A stretch of DNA of 64,000 nt from Chloroflexota bacterium (GCA_027623195.1 JAQBUT010000021.1:1-64000); one strand, 5' to 3'; shown: positions 35,904 through 60,671, numbered from the stretch's first letter. The notes: a model not told the origin generated them from the sequence alone. Made by a program: numbers and translations.

Positions 35904-35955
35904 TTGACATGCCGATACGCGCTGCCATATTATGGAACGCATGTTCTATTATAGT
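35904..35955 (+). promoter_or_regulatory. Sigma70 promoter region with consensus LexA (SOS) box GAACGCATGTTC at 35935-35946
   Basis: TTGACA at 35904 and TATTAT at 35928; perfect GAAC-N4-GTTC; a second -10 TATAGT at 35950 just before the GTG. Confidence 0.8.
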
Positions 35956-35960
35956 GATGT

Positions 35961-36377
35961 GTGTTGCACGGCAAAACCAGGGCGGTAGAGGTATGGCGTT
36001 CCCACCACCTCAGCATACCCGTTGATCTCCGACGCCTGGTCTCTGAGATGGATCTGGAGGTCGTTCTGTTTCCGTTCAAGGGTCGGGTAAACGAGATGAT
36101 CGTGGATGGCATCATCGGATTGAGCCCAGGCCTTACGAGACCGTGGTTCCGCTGGTTGGTGGCTCACGCCGTAGGGCATCATGTCATGCACGTGGGTTCA
36201 ACCTTCGGACTGGAGCCGTGGCAGTGGGTTAGCCGGGCCAGAGACGAATTGCAGGCGGAAGAGTTTGCCGCGAGTCTGATGGGTGGTCCTGATGGCTGGT
36301 CCTACTCAGCGAGGTGGCTGGGTATACCCGATGAAAAGTACCATTTGGTGCATAGATTGACGGGTCCGGATAGATAG
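35961..36377 (+). CDS. ImmA/IrrE-like (Peptidase M78) protein with degenerate HExxH
   Basis: RWLVAHAVGHHVMH and ELQAEEFAASLM match the family pattern R(F/W)xxAHELGH...ExxAxxFAxxLL. Confidence 0.8.
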   Translation: MLHGKTRAVEVWRSHHLSIPVDLRRLVSEMDLEVVLFPFKGRVNEMIVDGIIGLSPGLTRPWFRWLVAHAVGHHVMHVGSTFGLEPWQWVSRARDELQAEEFAASLMGGPDGWSYSARWLGIPDEKYHLVHRLTGPDR

Positions 36378-36420
36378 AAACAGAGAACGGCAAACGAGTG
36401 ATGGGGTTAAGGAGGGCAGG

Positions 36421-36795
36421 CTAGCCGGAAGCATCGCGCCTGCTGCGAATGTACCTCATGAAATCCTTTGCCGAATTCCATTCGTCATCCGTTAGGTCCT
36501 CGACCTCATTTAGTCTGGCCAGTTGACGGTCGTCCAGCGGGTTTTCGAACTCGTGGGCCGATATATAATCCGCTGCCATGGCAAGCTGGCCATACGGCAA
36601 ATCCAGGGACAGCGATAAGGCCTTGAGCGTTTCCACGGTAGGTCGAAAGCGACCGCTCTCCAGGTGCCCCACGTAGCCCTGGCTCTTGGTCAACAACTCG
36701 GACAGACGGCGCTGGCTCATCCCCTTACCTAAACGGGCCAGGCGTACTGCGTCCGCTAGTGTGGCGTATGGACGATTGCTGCTGCTCATGGTCAA
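36421..36795 (-). CDS. XRE-family HTH repressor (ImmR/CI-like)
   Basis: VRLARLGKGMSQRRLSELLTKSQGYVGHLESGRFRPTVETL. ATG at 36789 is an alternative start. Confidence 0.9.
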   Translation of the reverse strand: MTMSSSNRPYATLADAVRLARLGKGMSQRRLSELLTKSQGYVGHLESGRFRPTVETLKALSLSLDLPYGQLAMAADYISAHEFENPLDDRQLARLNEVEDLTDDEWNSAKDFMRYIRSRRDASG

Positions 36796-36819
36796 TCCTT
36801 GGATATTGTGTGCTCGATT

Positions 36820-36885
36820 ACTTTAATGGGACAGGACTTCAGCGTCAAATCTGTATTGACACAAATGTTCTACTCTCGGTATAAT
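36820..36885. promoter_or_regulatory. Back-to-back divergent sigma70 promoters with a degenerate LexA box
   Basis: Leftward TTGACG (36848-36843)-17-TAAAGT (36825-36820). Rightward TTGACA (36856)-18-TATAAT (36880). ACAC-AAAT-GTTC at 36859-36870 overlaps the rightward -35. Confidence 0.7.
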
Positions 36886-36919
36886 AGTGTTCGTCATTTT
36901 GCTTGTCGGTGATGATGGA

Positions 36920-37252
36920 TTGATACTTTTTAAAGCCTGTCCTCGGTGCGGCGGGGACGTAGACGCTACTTATAAGGAAGATATTTTTTGCATTCAATGT
37001 GCCTTTAGGCCGCAGGTGGCGTATCCGAGGCCTATGTTGGTGAGAGGAAGTGAGCAAGGAGGAGAGAGCGTGACGTTGGTCAACCGAAATTCGACCCCGG
37101 TAGGTTGTCCGCGATGTGCGCTGGAGGACGTAATCCCGCTGGAGAAGCTGCGGCCTCACTACAACACATGCTACAGGTGCAGGCTTTGCGGACACATCTT
37201 CAGTCCGGGATTTACGGACCCTCTATCAAAGTCTGAGGCCGCCAGTTTATAG
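36920..37252 (+). CDS. Double zinc-ribbon protein
   Basis: CPRC...CIQC and CPRC...CRLC. TTG 36920 (MILFKACPRCGGD) is the probable start, downstream of the promoter. Confidence 0.75.
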   Translation: MILFKACPRCGGDVDATYKEDIFCIQCAFRPQVAYPRPMLVRGSEQGGESVTLVNRNSTPVGCPRCALEDVIPLEKLRPHYNTCYRCRLCGHIFSPGFTDPLSKSEAASL

Positions 37253-56418: not shown

Positions 56419-56747
56419 TTTCTTCTGACTCCGGTAGCCCCACCCTCTGTCGAAAGGTGGTGATTAAGGCACCCTTAGCGTCCGCGCCGAAACATGTCCA
56501 AGAAGCGGTTCAGCAGTTGGCGCAGAGTTATTTTCCCGGGTCTGTTCAGGCGCTTCTCCGTGCAAGCTACACAACTGCAAGTAGGGGGGTGATCGCTATA
56601 CCATCCTGCTCTGCCCATGACATCGACCTGCCTTCTATCTATGCGGATTTATTGGGAACTGGTCCGAATATCCCTAATTTATTTGAACGTTCAGCTTAGC
56701 ACAAGGTTGGTTAAGAGTTGTTGTTGCAAAGATAATCCGCAAGCCGG

Positions 56748-56776
56748 TTGACAAATAAGAACAAATATTCTAATAT
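56748..56776 (+). promoter_or_regulatory. Sigma70 promoter of the tail operon with a LexA box in the spacer
   Basis: TTGACA (56748)-17 bp-TAATAT (56771). GAAC-AAAT-ATTC at 56759-56770, flanked by A and T, is one mismatch from GAAC-N4-GTTC. Confidence 0.78.
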
Positions 56777-56782
56777 GTTGTG

Positions 56783-56815
56783 AAGGGACGGACCCATTGG
56801 GTTCGCCCTTTTTTT
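56783..56815 (+). terminator. Promoter-proximal intrinsic terminator in the tail operon leader
   Basis: AAGGGACGGACCC-ATT-GGGTTCGCCC followed by T7. Confidence 0.72.
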
Positions 56816-56889
56816 GTTTGTGATTTTTCGAAATGGATTGCTGGGGTCCGAAGTTCGTCGTCCGAAGCGGATAGTTGATGGAGGTACGT

Positions 56890-57315
56890 ATGGCCTTTTT
56901 CGATTCCAAGGTCTCCAAGTTATTGCTGGATGACACAGGGGGCACACAGCGGGACCTGTCGCCCTTTATCAAGGAGGTGCGCGGGCTTCCCGGCGCCAGG
57001 CTGCTAAACGAAGTCACCGCGTTGGGCGACAGTGGCGCGCGCTTCATCCCCGGTCTGGAAGACGTGATGATTTCGCTAGCTGGCATATTTGACGACACGG
57101 CGACCTCCGGCCTGGACGCGGTTCTGGGACCGTTACGTACTCACACATCGGCGGTTGATTTCGAGTATGGCCCCGAAGGCTCGACGACCGGAGACGTAAA
57201 GTATTCTGGGACCTGTTGGGTAGCTCAGTACGACCTGCGGAGTCGGGTAGGCAGCCTGGTCGAATGGTCCGCCTCATTGCAGGTGGAGGGAACCGTTGCC
57301 CGTGGCGCGTTTTGA
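56890..57315 (+). CDS. Phage-like non-contractile tail tube (major tail) protein
   Basis: 141 aa. EVTALGD...FIPGLED..ISLAGIFD, FEYGPEG..TGDVKYSGTCWV..Y, VEWSASLQVEG follow the siphophage tail tube pattern. GGAGG RBS. Confidence 0.82.
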   Translation: MAFFDSKVSKLLLDDTGGTQRDLSPFIKEVRGLPGARLLNEVTALGDSGARFIPGLEDVMISLAGIFDDTATSGLDAVLGPLRTHTSAVDFEYGPEGSTTGDVKYSGTCWVAQYDLRSRVGSLVEWSASLQVEGTVARGAF

Positions 57316-57327
57316 TCAGTTGGCCAG

Positions 57328-57903
57328 ATGCCTGGTCTGACAGCCAAAGTATCGCAGGAGTGGCGATTGTTGGAAGTTAGGCGCATAAGTTTGCCCTCAG
57401 GCGGATGGTGGGCTATTCGAACACGGCCTACGTGGCAAGATGTTGGGGCTCTTGGCGACGGCATCGAGGGCCGCCTGGAACAGCTGCTAGTCAACGTAAC
57501 GGAGGCGTGGAGCTTTGAGGATGCGATCTCGTTGGATGCCCTGGCACGCATCGACGATGGCGACATGGCGGCAGTGATGCAGGTCGTTATCGAAGATGTT
57601 TTGCCCTGGCTGGACCAGGACTCCCCAGAAGAGATGGCGAAAGGTTTATTCGCCGGCATGTCGACCGGTCAGGTGCCAGAGGAGTTCCTGGATGTCCAAC
57701 TCATGGATGCCACTGGTTGGAGCTGGCAGGTCCTTCAAAGCGCCCCTGCAGACGTTGTGTTGAAGATGGCGATATTCCTGGCCGTTTCGCAGGTCAAAGC
57801 GGAGGGAGGAGCACTGCAATTTCCTCCGGATTTGCGCTCGTGGGAGGCCGCTGAAATTGTTCAGTTGGATGTTGGGTCAGAAGGAGATAAAGCCGGTGAC
57901 TAA
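57328..57903 (+). CDS. Putative tail assembly chaperone (G- and T-like parts in one frame)
   Basis: Lies directly after the tube gene; acidic N-terminal half with a WSF motif; C-terminal LMDATGWSWQVLQSAP resembles gpT-like motifs. Confidence 0.6.
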   Translation: MPGLTAKVSQEWRLLEVRRISLPSGGWWAIRTRPTWQDVGALGDGIEGRLEQLLVNVTEAWSFEDAISLDALARIDDGDMAAVMQVVIEDVLPWLDQDSPEEMAKGLFAGMSTGQVPEEFLDVQLMDATGWSWQVLQSAPADVVLKMAIFLAVSQVKAEGGALQFPPDLRSWEAAEIVQLDVGSEGDKAGD

Positions 57904-58219
57904 TGACTTCCCTCAAGAGAAGCTTAACAGCCTGAGAGTGGACGCCAATCAATCTATGCAAAGGTTTGCCCGGAACAGGCAGGCACCGACTCTGTGGTCG
58001 TTAACGTCGGGACCCCGGGAGCGGCATAGGACAGCAGCTTCGGAGGCGTCGGCGACCTCGCGTCCGGCAAGCCGTCGGAGCGAGGGCGCATCAGTCGATA
58101 TCGAGGCCTCGGCCTCTGGCGTCACCGTTGATGAAGAAAGACAGGGCCGGGCCATGGCCAAGGAGATCAAGAGGCTTATTGTCGAGGACCGCCGACGAGG
58201 TCTCGGAGTGGGCGGCTAG
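57896..58219 (+). CDS. Miniature tape-measure-like protein (107 aa)
   Basis: AAGGAG RBS and a GTG overlapping the chaperone end. Occupies the tape-measure position; the C-terminus VTVDEERQGRAMAKEIKRLIVEDRRRGLG resembles TMP termini. Confidence 0.5.
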   Translation: MTNDFPQEKLNSLRVDANQSMQRFARNRQAPTLWSLTSGPRERHRTAASEASATSRPASRRSEGASVDIEASASGVTVDEERQGRAMAKEIKRLIVEDRRRGLGVGG

Positions 58220-58260
58220 TAATTCCCAAAGGCAACAACACTTGAGATGGCGAGGTGAAC

Positions 58261-60222
58261 ATGCCGCAGGCCAAATGGCTGGTAAAGGTGGACTGGAATG
58301 GGGACGGAGACTTCAGCGACGCCAACGAGGACGTGACATCTGAAGTGCTGGGACTGACGCTGGAGCACTTTCGGGACCTGACCAGCGGGCACATAGAGGC
58401 GGCGCGTCTTGAGCTTCAGTTACGTAACGATAATCACAAGTACAGTCCTCCCAACGCGTCGTCGCCCCTTAGCGGGAACCTGAAGCCCGGGCGCAAAGTG
58501 TGGCTCAGGGCGGCATTTCCTTTCGACAGCTTTACGGACAGTGGAGGGAAGCAGCTATCAACCCACACACCGGATTACGACGGCACCTTCTCCTGGAGCG
58601 AACATCTTCAGGGATTCGACGTAGTCCCCGGTGGCGTCGGCGCTCAAACAGACGGCATCGAAAGCAATGGCGACTGCGTTGCCACAATGGACTTCGCAGA
58701 GGCAGACCTCTCTTTGGGCTGTGACTTTACCAGGGGTACTGATGCAACGGACCACGGTGGCCTTTGCTTTCGATACTCGAATACCAGCAACTACCTGTAC
58801 GCCCGTGTGACAGGTTCTGCTATCGAGGTGAGAAAGGTAGAGGCGGGATCGGATTCGCTTGTCGCATCGGCGTTGCACACCTGGGCATCCACAACTCAGA
58901 AATTCTTGCAAGTGCTGCTGCACGGGAATGCCATCCGAGTCTTCGTTAACGACACGGAGGTTATCGACGCCAGTTCGTCGTTCAACGCTACGGCCACCCG
59001 CCATGGCCTCTTCTGTGACGATGAGGCCGACCATAAATGGGATGCTTTCGGTGGCTGGGTTTCGCTCTTCTACGGCTGGGTGGACTCCATCCACCCGCGA
59101 CCGCGAATCGGAGCGCAATACTGCTACCTGCGCGCCCTGGACGAGATGGAGCGGCTAACGGGCACTACCCTGTACATGGCCCCGACTTCCTCGTTTCCTC
59201 AAACCTCAGACGAAATTTTGGGGGACATACTGAATTATGGTGATGTCGATTCGAGCCGTCGCCAGTTAGACACAGGGGTTCAGCTAGTCCCCTCTTTGTG
59301 GAGCGCTCCGGAATGGGGGGTCCAGGCCACCGATGAGATACATCGCCTGCAGGACGAGGAGGATGGCTTCGTCTATGTGGACGGCCATGGCTACTGGCGA
59401 TTGGAAAACCGCTCTCACCGGACAAGTGCGCCTCACAGCACCTCATTGGCTACTCTCAAAGACACGGACGATGGAACGAACCCTTACTTCTCGGAGTTGG
59501 TGTGGGACGACGGGGTGGACAACGTCGAGAACCTGGTATTCATGAAAGTGTGGGAGGCGACCAACAACGGCCTCAACACGGTATGGACCCTTACGGAGAA
59601 ACCAACGTTCAGCGCGAACGAGACCAAGGATTTTCTAGCGGAGAGTAAGGACTACGATATTGTCGTTGGGCAGCTTACGCCTCTGGAGAATACGGACTAC
59701 GACGCCAATACCGTCCAGGATGGCTCGGGAACCGACATCTCCAGCCAGCTAACCGTAACCCACCCGAGCACCGCGAACTTCAACGGCAAGGGTACTTTGA
59801 TTCGCGTCACCTTCGGGGCGACGCCCGGTTACCTTACGCTGTTGAAGCTGCGTAGCCTCAACGCGCTGACGTTGGATGCCCCTGTCCTGGTTAAAGCAGA
59901 CGACAGCACCAGCAAATCAACGTTCGGCCAACGCATCAGAAGCATCGATGCCCGCTGGACCAGGGAGGTAGGCGTTGCGCAGGCCACGGTGGACAGCAGG
60001 CTGGCCCGGCGGAAGGACCCCAGGACGGTGCTTAATCTAGTAGTGGTAAATGGCTCAGCGGCCAACCTGATGCTGATCCTGCAGCGCGCATTCTCGGACC
60101 GAGTGACGATCAGCTACAGCGCCATGGGCATCAGTGAAGATTTCTTGGTAGAGGGACATCGGCTTATTGTGAGCCGCGGCTGGACCCTGGTAGAGCGTGA
60201 GCTGCTGCTGCAGGGGGTTTAG
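58261..60222 (+). CDS. Tail tip/baseplate hub-like minor tail protein with inserted beta-sandwich (lectin-like) domain
   Basis: N-terminal VDWNGDG..EDVT..LELQLRN..KYSP.N..SPL.G.LKPGR; resumes at LFYGWVDSI..LRALD after a beta-rich insert; EDGFVYVDG.G; C-terminal DRVTI..FLVEG. Confidence 0.68.
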   Translation: MPQAKWLVKVDWNGDGDFSDANEDVTSEVLGLTLEHFRDLTSGHIEAARLELQLRNDNHKYSPPNASSPLSGNLKPGRKVWLRAAFPFDSFTDSGGKQLSTHTPDYDGTFSWSEHLQGFDVVPGGVGAQTDGIESNGDCVATMDFAEADLSLGCDFTRGTDATDHGGLCFRYSNTSNYLYARVTGSAIEVRKVEAGSDSLVASALHTWASTTQKFLQVLLHGNAIRVFVNDTEVIDASSSFNATATRHGLFCDDEADHKWDAFGGWVSLFYGWVDSIHPRPRIGAQYCYLRALDEMERLTGTTLYMAPTSSFPQTSDEILGDILNYGDVDSSRRQLDTGVQLVPSLWSAPEWGVQATDEIHRLQDEEDGFVYVDGHGYWRLENRSHRTSAPHSTSLATLKDTDDGTNPYFSELVWDDGVDNVENLVFMKVWEATNNGLNTVWTLTEKPTFSANETKDFLAESKDYDIVVGQLTPLENTDYDANTVQDGSGTDISSQLTVTHPSTANFNGKGTLIRVTFGATPGYLTLLKLRSLNALTLDAPVLVKADDSTSKSTFGQRIRSIDARWTREVGVAQATVDSRLARRKDPRTVLNLVVVNGSAANLMLILQRAFSDRVTISYSAMGISEDFLVEGHRLIVSRGWTLVERELLLQGV

Positions 60223-60225
60223 GGG

Positions 60226-60323
60226 GTAGTCGTTAGTTCTTAGTATTTAGTGGAGTTGCCGGGGCACCGATGGCCACTTGCGCAAGTCTCCTTACTAACA
60301 ACTCAAAACTAATAACCAATTAC
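60226..60323. repeat. Heptamer-periodic imperfect inverted repeat
   Basis: GTAGTCGTTAGTTCTTAGTATTTAGTGGAG ... CTCCTTACTAACAACTCAAAACTAATAACCAATTAC; same style as 17073-17153. Confidence 0.65.
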
Positions 60324-60342
60324 TCGACACTTGGAGCCACGC

Positions 60343-60564
60343 ATGCAAATAGATCTAACGCAATTCCTGAACGCCGGCATAGCGGGCATAATCCTGCTCT
60401 GGTTCATGTTCCGGTTGGAGCGCATCCTCACCCGATTCGACAAGACGGTGCAGTTGATGACCCGCGCCATCATCCGGCTGCTGGAGCGCCACGACGAGCA
60501 TCTGGCCACTCAACTCAGCAAGGAGCTTTACGGCGTAAACGGGGACGAGAGCGGTGGTGGGTAG
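60343..60564 (+). CDS. Small single-TM plus coiled-coil protein (YvrJ/BhlA holin-like)
   Basis: NAGIAGIILLWFMFRLERIL..FDKTVQLMTRAI; GGAG RBS; last gene of the tail operon. Confidence 0.6.
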   Translation: MQIDLTQFLNAGIAGIILLWFMFRLERILTRFDKTVQLMTRAIIRLLERHDEHLATQLSKELYGVNGDESGGG

Positions 60565-60639
60565 AGGGGGAACTCGTAGTCGAAATTGAGCGGTCCACTG
60601 TTCTTTTACGACTGCGTATTTGAAGGGGATTCATGGACG

Positions 60640-60671
60640 AAAAAGGGGCGGAATTGATTCCGCCCCTTTTT
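60640..60671. terminator. Bidirectional intrinsic terminator
   Basis: AAAAAGGGGCGGAAT-TG-ATTCCGCCCCTTTTT between convergent genes. Confidence 0.9.

Follow-up and report, generated by a model that had tools for sequence, protein, structure and literature searches.

Two kinds of described system come closest to the locus analyzed here. One is the gene transfer agent (GTA), as exemplified by RcGTA and CcGTA; the other is the F-type tailocin, as exemplified by pyocin F and monocin, in which a headless, non-contractile tail gene cluster is kept by its host. Tailocins are inducible by DNA damage. The locus is a five-gene operon of phage-tail type at positions 56748..60671 of a 64,000-nucleotide stretch of DNA (hereafter, the window) from a Chloroflexota bacterium (GCA_027623195.1, JAQBUT010000021.1:1-64000). 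The window is contig C3 of an assembly designated G000 (3.0 Mb, 65 contigs, 87% complete). An original prediction, made from the sequence alone, took the operon for a domesticated short non-contractile tail module of the GTA or tailocin type, and protein structure, synteny, selection, regulation, and the split loci of relatives all support that assignment. Comparative sequence evidence leads us to read the operon, with a probability of roughly 0.58, as a host-kept, SOS-induced tail unit, the detached tail end of a GTA-like head-tail gene set, that has outlived its head genes in this genus.

The likeness to RcGTA and CcGTA lies in the relatives of the window genome. These carry a chromosomal, phage-derived head-tail gene set of about 15-17 kb, which lacks integrase and replication genes, is conserved like host genes, and in some lineages is spread over several loci. 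The systems are likened by gene content, not by gene sequences, and there are differences: the lineage here is Chloroflexota, the control appears to be LexA-based, and no head or packaging gene was found in G000. Head, portal, and terminase genes were found within one genome in G004 (a genome of the window's own family, f1), in G025 (from another family of the same order), and in another genus of family f1, designated g4, but not in G000 or in its two genus mates (G001 and G002, which together with G000 form genus g1). Genes for integration and replication are lacking, and the set shows chromosomal inheritance under purifying selection. The available part of a 2024 review of GTAs (PMC11841831) lists Alphaproteobacteria, Brachyspira, Desulfovibrio, and Methanococcus voltae, with no mention of Chloroflexi. 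Literature searches, judged by titles and the openings of abstracts, turned up no report of a GTA, a tailocin, or this element in Chloroflexi or SAR202.

The operon shares with F-type tailocins the possession of tail genes without heads, kept by the host, a state found in all three genomes of genus g1, subject to their completeness. It differs in having five genes only, with no recognizable tape measure, distal tail protein, terminator, fiber, or endolysin, so that neither a complete tail set nor a lysis cassette is seen in it, and in deriving from a set that elsewhere still has heads. The tail module of a siphophage, IMG/VR locus L061, has tube, chaperone, tape-measure slot, and hub in the same order as the window; it differs in the tape-measure slot, which encodes 592 residues there and 48-120 here. 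From sequence comparison, gene content and mode of inheritance liken the order-wide set to a GTA, while in the window genome it looks like an F-type tailocin.

The five open reading frames (ORFs) are all on the + strand and span 56890-60564 without internal stops; their starts were refined from homolog lengths and Shine-Dalgarno motifs, such as the GGAGG that precedes the tube ATG at 56890. The original prediction had described five intact, co-oriented genes with good ribosome-binding sites in siphophage order, and all of this holds except for part of the order: the tube and hub identities stand, while the labels of chaperone, tape measure, and holin are positional only. The first gene (g1, 56890..57315, 141 aa) is, by sequence profile, a major tail (tube) protein. 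It matches phrog_10528, the PHROG family of that name, at E 1.4e-33 with 140 of 142 profile positions covered; its match to Pfam Phage_tail_2 (E 0.028) is under the family cut-off. Tube and hub each have hundreds of close homologs. Over the best 120 matches of each, identities run from 74 to 93% for the tube and from 56 to 86% for the hub; many of the listed homologs lie on megabase-size contigs, and the few that carry names are labeled "Chloroflexi bacterium". The tube is also 29-31% identical to major tail proteins in 12 Arthrobacter phage records.

The fourth gene (g4, 58261..60222, 653 aa) belongs to no Pfam, PHROG, or NCBIfam family, and its assignment comes from comparison of a model structure. 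The AlphaFold model, built with 34 homologs in the input (predicted local distance difference test score, pLDDT, 76.8), aligns along its whole length to tail hubs of the gp27/gp44 type. The matches are to the Neisseria Mu-like tail protein 3d37_B (Z 21.4, 283 residues aligned, root-mean-square deviation 3.5), Mu gp44 (1wru, Z 18.9), T4 gp27 (1k28_D, Z 18.4), and the monocin tip protein 9j1k_L (Z 16.4, root-mean-square deviation 4.0, 276 residues), the last of these being a further point of likeness to an F-type tailocin. Inserted at residues ~91-267 is a CBM66-like lectin fold (4b1m, Z 20.4); a profile search of PDB sequences recovered the same levanase CBM66 weakly (E 0.017). As modeled, the fourth gene product is a tail hub of the gp27/gp44 type into which a CBM66-like lectin domain is inserted. 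A collection of cultured phages contained no full-length relative of the hub, its single matching record covering 21% of the query. Both proteins thus show the structural likeness to tail proteins that had been anticipated, the tube by profile and the hub by fold.

The remaining three proteins are less easily named; the NCBIfam search gave nothing useful for any of the five. The second (g2, 57367..57903, 178 aa), which has no family match in Pfam, PHROG, or NCBIfam, is placed at the tail-assembly-chaperone position by gene order and weak similarity. It is 28% identical (E 4e-7) to an ORF between tube and tape measure in L061, and the position is called that of a chaperone because L061, whose order is presumably the ancestral siphophage order, has its chaperone pair there. 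The best look-alike of its model (pLDDT 72.5) in the PDB is, weakly, the HK97 tail assembly chaperone 2ob9. The third (g3, 57857..58219, 120 aa) stands at the tape-measure position and has no Pfam, PHROG, or other family match. Its ORF is kept in all six genomes compared, at lengths of 48-120 aa, and of the 17 invariant columns in the alignment 16 fall within the last 26 residues, a conserved C-terminal basic helix; on these sequence grounds g3 is a real gene. A complex prediction pairing the hub with the last 41 residues of g3, which are conserved, scored 0.00 and gives no verdict either way. Two candidate interpretations of g3 were rejected. A programmed frameshift joining it to g2 is out, since the relative frame of the two genes varies between genomes and some pairs do not overlap, leaving no conserved frameshift layout. 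Identification as a recognizable tape measure is out as well, for want of sequence similarity, the agreement being in position only. The tape-measure slot, filled by a protein of 48-120 aa in this lineage, is empty in genus g4.

The fifth gene (g5, 60343..60564, 73 aa) encodes one hydrophobic helix followed by a charged C-terminal part and is holin-like by shape only. It has no Pfam, PHROG, or NCBIfam family, and its look-alike by language-model features, YvrJ (PF12841, score 0.92), is a lead only. The gene follows the hub in nine of the eleven relatives' loci that were fetched. One genome, G035, has two copies of it downstream of the hub (locus L013, 5673-5876 and 8616-8813), about 2.7 kb apart; the interval holds ORFs of 501 and 192 aa on the opposite strand.

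The window operon corresponds to the tail end of the head-tail set found in relatives. In G025 the set stands in one co-directional piece: genes for an M78 metallopeptidase, a helix-turn-helix (HTH) protein, and a Zn-ribbon protein are followed by the large terminase subunit (TerL), portal, an insertion sequence, protease, HK97-type capsid, six further genes that include a LamG-domain protein, adaptor, tube, g2, g3, hub, and g5. On one side this cluster adjoins genes for a thioredoxin-like protein, PIG-L, and complex I subunits, and on the other a dehydrogenase gene; neither an integrase nor a replication gene was found in the cluster or its flanks. The insertion between portal and protease encodes a DDE_Tnp_1_4 transposase (L044 9031-10599), of which a 66% identical copy occurs in G000 on a short contig (C57:346-1878). 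In G004 the part from M78 to adaptor is in one piece on contig C163, and the tail locus is detached, its tube adjoining a JAB gene as in the window. In genus g4, which includes several single-contig genomes, the genes fall into three separate loci (TerL-portal, protease-capsid-adaptor, and tube-hub-g5) without g2 and g3, so that the tube runs straight into the hub, and the tail locus still lies beside NHL-DUF1800-DUF1501. The chromosomal site, with JAB on one side of the tail and NHL-DUF1800-DUF1501 on the other, recurs across family f1. The IMG/VR locus L061, one of two IMG/VR contigs that carry relatives, has the order adaptor, Neck1, tail terminator, tube, chaperone pair, 592-aa tape measure, hub; its hub and tube are 44% and 60% identical to those of the window. 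The synteny of the site and the splitting of the genes across loci bear out what was foreseen. An entire prophage at the same position in near relatives, named at the outset as evidence that would tell against domestication, was not found; the joined tail-head cluster of G025, in another family, lies between host genes and contains no integrase. We take the operon to be the tail portion, since detached, of an ancient head-tail set that came from a phage and has been inherited with the chromosome.

Within the family, the hub occurs in 22 of 24 other genomes, as a rule in single copy, and of 26 family genomes 22 have the portal and 22 the capsid, both being missing from G000, G001, G002, and G003. 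In a sample of 251 genomes of the order, 61 have the hub and 90 the capsid (53-81% identity), and a reading of the two tables together gives 50 of the 61 hub-positive genomes, fragmented metagenome-assembled genomes (MAGs) included, as having the capsid as well. Across 401 genomes sampled from the phylum only three have the hub, counting G000, and the other two are partial. Judged by these matches, the hub family is essentially confined to the order. Tail proteins diverge faster than their neighbors within genus g4, where identity is 56-76% for the hub and 59-75% for the tube vs 85-91% for the adjacent DUF1800 protein; this reflects either acceleration after the loss of g2 and g3 or exchange between lineages. 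Correlation between hub and DUF1800 distances in that genus is weak (Spearman 0.57, 10 pairs), and congruence is not established.

No TerL (phrog_2), portal (PF04860), or capsid gene was found in the assemblies of G000, G001, or G002, in keeping with the earlier statement that these genes are absent and with the search of the remaining genome that it called for. When 17 proteins of the G025 set were compared to G000 by tblastn, only M78, the Zn-ribbon protein, tube, g2, and the transposase were found. No integrase was seen here either, as had been claimed, nor a replication gene, and a Pfam scan showed no endolysin in the operon; sheath and endolysin were not searched for genome-wide. Many equally fragmented MAGs of the order keep the capsid gene, and because 50 of 61 hub-positive genomes have it, binning does not usually lose it. 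Since the head genes are absent from three MAGs, since a gene for an MFS protein now follows the regulatory genes that TerL follows elsewhere (see below), and since fragmented MAGs keep the capsid, head loss in genus g1 appears more likely than an assembly gap.

Evidence for selection comes from ratios of nonsynonymous to synonymous substitution (dN/dS), computed with a Nei-Gojobori script for G000 against G001 and G002. The ratios are 0.02-0.04 for the tube, the most constrained of the five genes, 0.07-0.085 for the hub (from the two parts available in G002), 0.18-0.20 for g2, 0.17-0.31 for g3, and 0.11 for g5, all of them rough because dS (0.55-2.9) is partly saturated. Flanking host genes give 0.055-0.23. 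The low ratios indicate that the tail genes, and with them the regulatory triad described below (0.06-0.18), are under purifying selection in a genus without detected heads, a selection as strong as, or stronger than, that on flanking host genes. It seems, therefore, that the host uses the tail genes itself.

Upstream of the tube, a consensus scan found a sigma-70-type promoter, TTGACA-17-TAATAT (56748..56776, + strand, 10 of 12 positions), and between its -35 and -10 elements lies a putative LexA-like box, AGAACAAATATTCT (56758..56771, + strand). The architecture, consisting of TTGAC(A/T), five bases, a GAAC-N4-(G/A)T(T/A)C-like box, and a -10 hexamer, was seen before the tube in all 13 relatives whose tail locus is detached. 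Promoter and box were present in every upstream region examined, namely 13 of tube, five of TerL, and four of protease genes. G000 encodes a LexA gene of its own, and the boxes upstream of its recA (AGAACAAATGTATT) and lexA (AGAACATTAGTACT) resemble the tube box. Because similar boxes precede the genome's own lexA and recA, and given the Gram-positive-type LexA operator consensus, we infer from sequence that the tube box, which overlaps the promoter, is a LexA operator of the Gram-positive type, to which LexA would bind. Both the SOS box and the operon's own promoter were part of the original prediction, and they hold up in this comparison. A scan of G000 for a box directly behind TTGA(C/T) gave five places, three of them with a downstream ORF, one of which is the tube. 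At two contig positions, C19:16570 and C50:8099, a GAAC-N4-GTTC box lies directly behind TTGAC and upstream of ORFs of 485 and 95 aa, respectively; these may be SOS genes.

The original prediction overlooked a second element of the leader. About 7 nt past the -10 hexamer begins a terminator-like hairpin followed by a T-run (56783..56815, + strand; -19.1 kcal/mol, z -4.98), which was listed by the terminator scan as well as by folding. In relatives it takes the form GGGAC(A/G)GACCC-loop-complement and then a T-run, a few bases past the -10 element, and the GGGACGGACCC hairpin is present in 10 of 13 tube leaders and four of five TerL leaders examined. The TerL genes of G004, G005, G035, and G007 have a tube-like promoter, box, and hairpin; that of G018 has the box with no clear hairpin. 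When 14 leaders are aligned, pairing holds in 88.3% of cells, vs at most 61% with partners slid, and one pair switches between G-C (seven sequences) and A-U (five); the shuffle control of this alignment is weak because the columns are so conserved. The combination of promoter and GGGACGGACCC leader was found in G000 at the tube locus only. On this analysis the hairpin looks like an intrinsic terminator that should stop most transcripts unless overridden, and since it stands at the very start of the transcript, read-through should need anti-termination or attenuation, by analogy with the anti-termination known for phage late genes and CcGTA. In the available part of one report, CcGTA is described as using transcriptional activation and anti-termination (PMC11150451), to which the leader terminators here would be a parallel. 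In front of the protease-capsid operons of G004, G005, G007, and G018 the promoter and box recur, and the structured leader there is a different one. This second conserved leader consists of a GCTCCGnGACGGAGC hairpin and then a GCCCCCGAT...ATCGGGGG hairpin (L032 7300-7600, L031 15700-15800, L034, L036); a T-run comes next in G004 and G005, and CGTTTCG instead in G018. Rfam has no family for the tube leader or for the TerL and protease leaders of G004.

A related regulatory triad, also overlooked before, lies 20 kb upstream of the operon (35961-37252). It comprises an M78 (ImmA/IrrE-like) metallopeptidase (35961..36377, + strand; phrog_87, E 1.8e-5), an XRE-type HTH repressor-like protein (36421..36795, - strand; Pfam HTH_3, E 6e-10), and a Zn-ribbon protein (36920..37252, + strand), the start of which was refined to the TTG at 36920. 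Behind the M78 promoter is a perfect GAAC-N4-GTTC box, GGAACGCATGTTCT (35934..35947, + strand), and the Zn-ribbon promoter (36856-36887) carries a conserved half-box, ..ATGTTCT. Homologs of the triad head the cluster in G025 and G004, with 56-59% identity for M78 and 62-67% for the HTH protein. The dN/dS ratios for its members are 0.07-0.09 (M78), 0.06-0.13 (XRE), and 0.12-0.18 (Zn-ribbon). The order HhH-M78-HTH-ZnR-MFS, with an HhH-GPD gene upstream and the MFS gene downstream, is the same in all three genomes of genus g1, so TerL no longer follows the triad there. The XRE and M78 proteins may be a repressor and anti-repressor protease pair like the ImmR/ImmA pairs of ICEBs1 and temperate phages. 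The likeness is that an XRE HTH gene adjoins an M78 metallopeptidase gene and, in G025 and G004, heads the element; the difference is the third conserved partner, the Zn-ribbon protein. The M78 gene is absent from two complete genomes of genus g4 that keep heads and tails, and Zn-ribbon homologs in that genus are patchy or weak, which leaves it undecided from sequence whether the Zn-ribbon protein is a universally kept activator.

The setting of the operon is as first described. It lies between ordinary genes, JAB on one side and NHL (Pfam), DUF1800, and DUF1501 on the other, with a PDZ protein and a LeuA-like enzyme also in the neighborhood, and its composition is host-like, with GC of 0.49-0.61 over the tail unit vs 0.51-0.62 in the flanks. 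It ends at a bidirectional intrinsic terminator (60640..60671) that it shares with the convergent NHL gene; this folds on either strand, at -23.1 and -22.5 kcal/mol (z -5.4 and -5.6), and was not listed by the simple terminator scan. Between JAB and the tube promoter, the intergenic block 56470-56710 is strikingly conserved in nucleotide sequence among G000, G002, and G001. The block contains a 10-bp palindrome (56684-56693) and overlaps an ORF of 80 aa (56457-56699), for which the G001 and G002 copies show 61% identity over 54-56 aa. It matches no Rfam and no Pfam family and could be a small gene, an RNA, or a JAB leader. Rfam searches of this block and of the leaders gave two matches in all, far under the gathering score.

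Several observations weigh against the reading of the operon as a working tail that has outlived its heads. A free-standing tail of five genes has no tested precedent, and no tape measure, distal tail protein, tail terminator, fiber, or lysis enzyme is recognizable in the operon. Similarity of the g2 model to 2ob9 is under significance (Foldseek E 1.6, VIA Z 4.9), and BLASTP finds no likeness between g3 and the L061 tape measure of 592 aa. The promoter match by itself is not above chance, with one promoter-like site in the region vs 2.1 +/- 1.4 in shuffles, and the selection ratios carry the roughness noted above. The hub of G000 is 72-77% identical to hubs of other families vs 52-60% to those of genus g4 in its own family, and because of this strict vertical descent across the order is not established. 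Hub genes are split or truncated in G008, G011, G083, G121, G147, and G099, so that the system has been lost in places. In two of these, complete genomes of genus g4, the hub is split by inserted DNA of ~2.5 kb (G011, L020) and 0.8 kb (G008, L021); in the other four it is reduced to C-terminal or end fragments, some with stops. Finally, the stand-alone status of the operon rests on three incomplete MAGs, G000 at 87% and its genus mates at 86% and 89%, so that head absence is not proven.

This last point feeds directly into an alternative in which the organism, like genus g4, has a complete but split GTA-like system, the operon being its tail part and the head operons lying in unassembled or unbinned DNA. 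Besides the incompleteness of the three assemblies, a reading of the tables shows that, of order genomes with a full-length hub, only G000, G067 (68% complete), and G243 (89%) lack the capsid, and the strong constraint on tail genes and regulators is what a working whole would be expected to show. We nevertheless consider this alternative unlikely: none of the three MAGs of the genus, which are independent of each other, has TerL, portal, or capsid, head genes survived in other fragmented MAGs of the order, and an MFS gene, not TerL, follows the triad in all three genomes. The incompleteness of the usual tail set (no recognizable tape measure, distal tail protein, terminator, or lysis enzyme), the CBM66-like domain of the hub, and the ability of genus g4 to do without g2 and g3 might instead suggest that the tail genes are kept for a role other than a particle, such as a surface or secreted carbohydrate-binding assembly, or a decoy or defense against related phages. 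That is a rather improbable reading, given that tube and hub are adjacent, and are co-regulated with head genes wherever heads exist, and that the tube is the most constrained of the five proteins, as expected for a polymerizing tail part.

Least probable of all, already disfavored and with only a slim chance of being right, is the view that a prophage, either decaying to a remnant or still active and mobile, accounts for the operon, which would then do nothing for the host. All of its genes are phage-derived, the hub is split or truncated in the six genomes named above, and two IMG/VR contigs carry relatives; yet the operon has no stops or frameshifts, dN/dS stays at 0.02-0.31 over a dS near or above 1, the family has it at one fixed chromosomal site, GC is host-like, and integrase and replication genes are missing both here and beside the complete cluster of G025. 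A host-kept tail operon that outlived its heads remains the reading we prefer, and from the sequences compared such an operon probably works without heads, in the manner of a tailocin.

If so, a LexA-type repressor would sit on the box between the -35 and -10 elements and would be lifted by DNA damage, and the M78/XRE/Zn-ribbon triad, with LexA-like boxes of its own, would belong to the same circuit. Transcripts would start a few bases before the strong hairpin and U-run, and would read through by anti-termination or attenuation, with the Zn-ribbon protein as a candidate only for the read-through factor. The products may then build a very short non-contractile tail, in which a trimeric gp27/gp44-type hub would display CBM66-like lectin domains and tube rings would stack on the hub, g2 perhaps being the chaperone and g3 a short ruler or plug. 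The fifth protein, a small membrane protein, might help in release. The headless particle could act as an F-type tailocin or in some other tail-only role.

More tentatively, and with somewhat less than even odds, we suggest that a whole order of Chloroflexota has a GTA-like system not described before, whose operons became dispersed and came under SOS control with a leader terminator in common, and that one genus dropped the heads while selection kept the tail and its regulators. GTAs and non-contractile tailocins are known from few lineages, and the finding bears on their range. Its points of interest are the headless yet constrained state, the SOS promoter and leader terminator shared among operons, which together with the box make a directly testable regulon, and the graded reduction among relatives. 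The graded states (contiguous cluster, three scattered operons, minimal tube-hub-g5 tail, and headless tail) point to the dismantling and reuse of a virus-derived machine. If true, this would be a natural transition in which a gene transfer agent became a minimal tailocin of five genes, its tip bearing a lectin and its ruler protein reduced to a miniature. The host lineage is, we presume, uncultured and abundant in the dark ocean, and a host-kept particle system in it, if real, would bear on gene flow or competition there.

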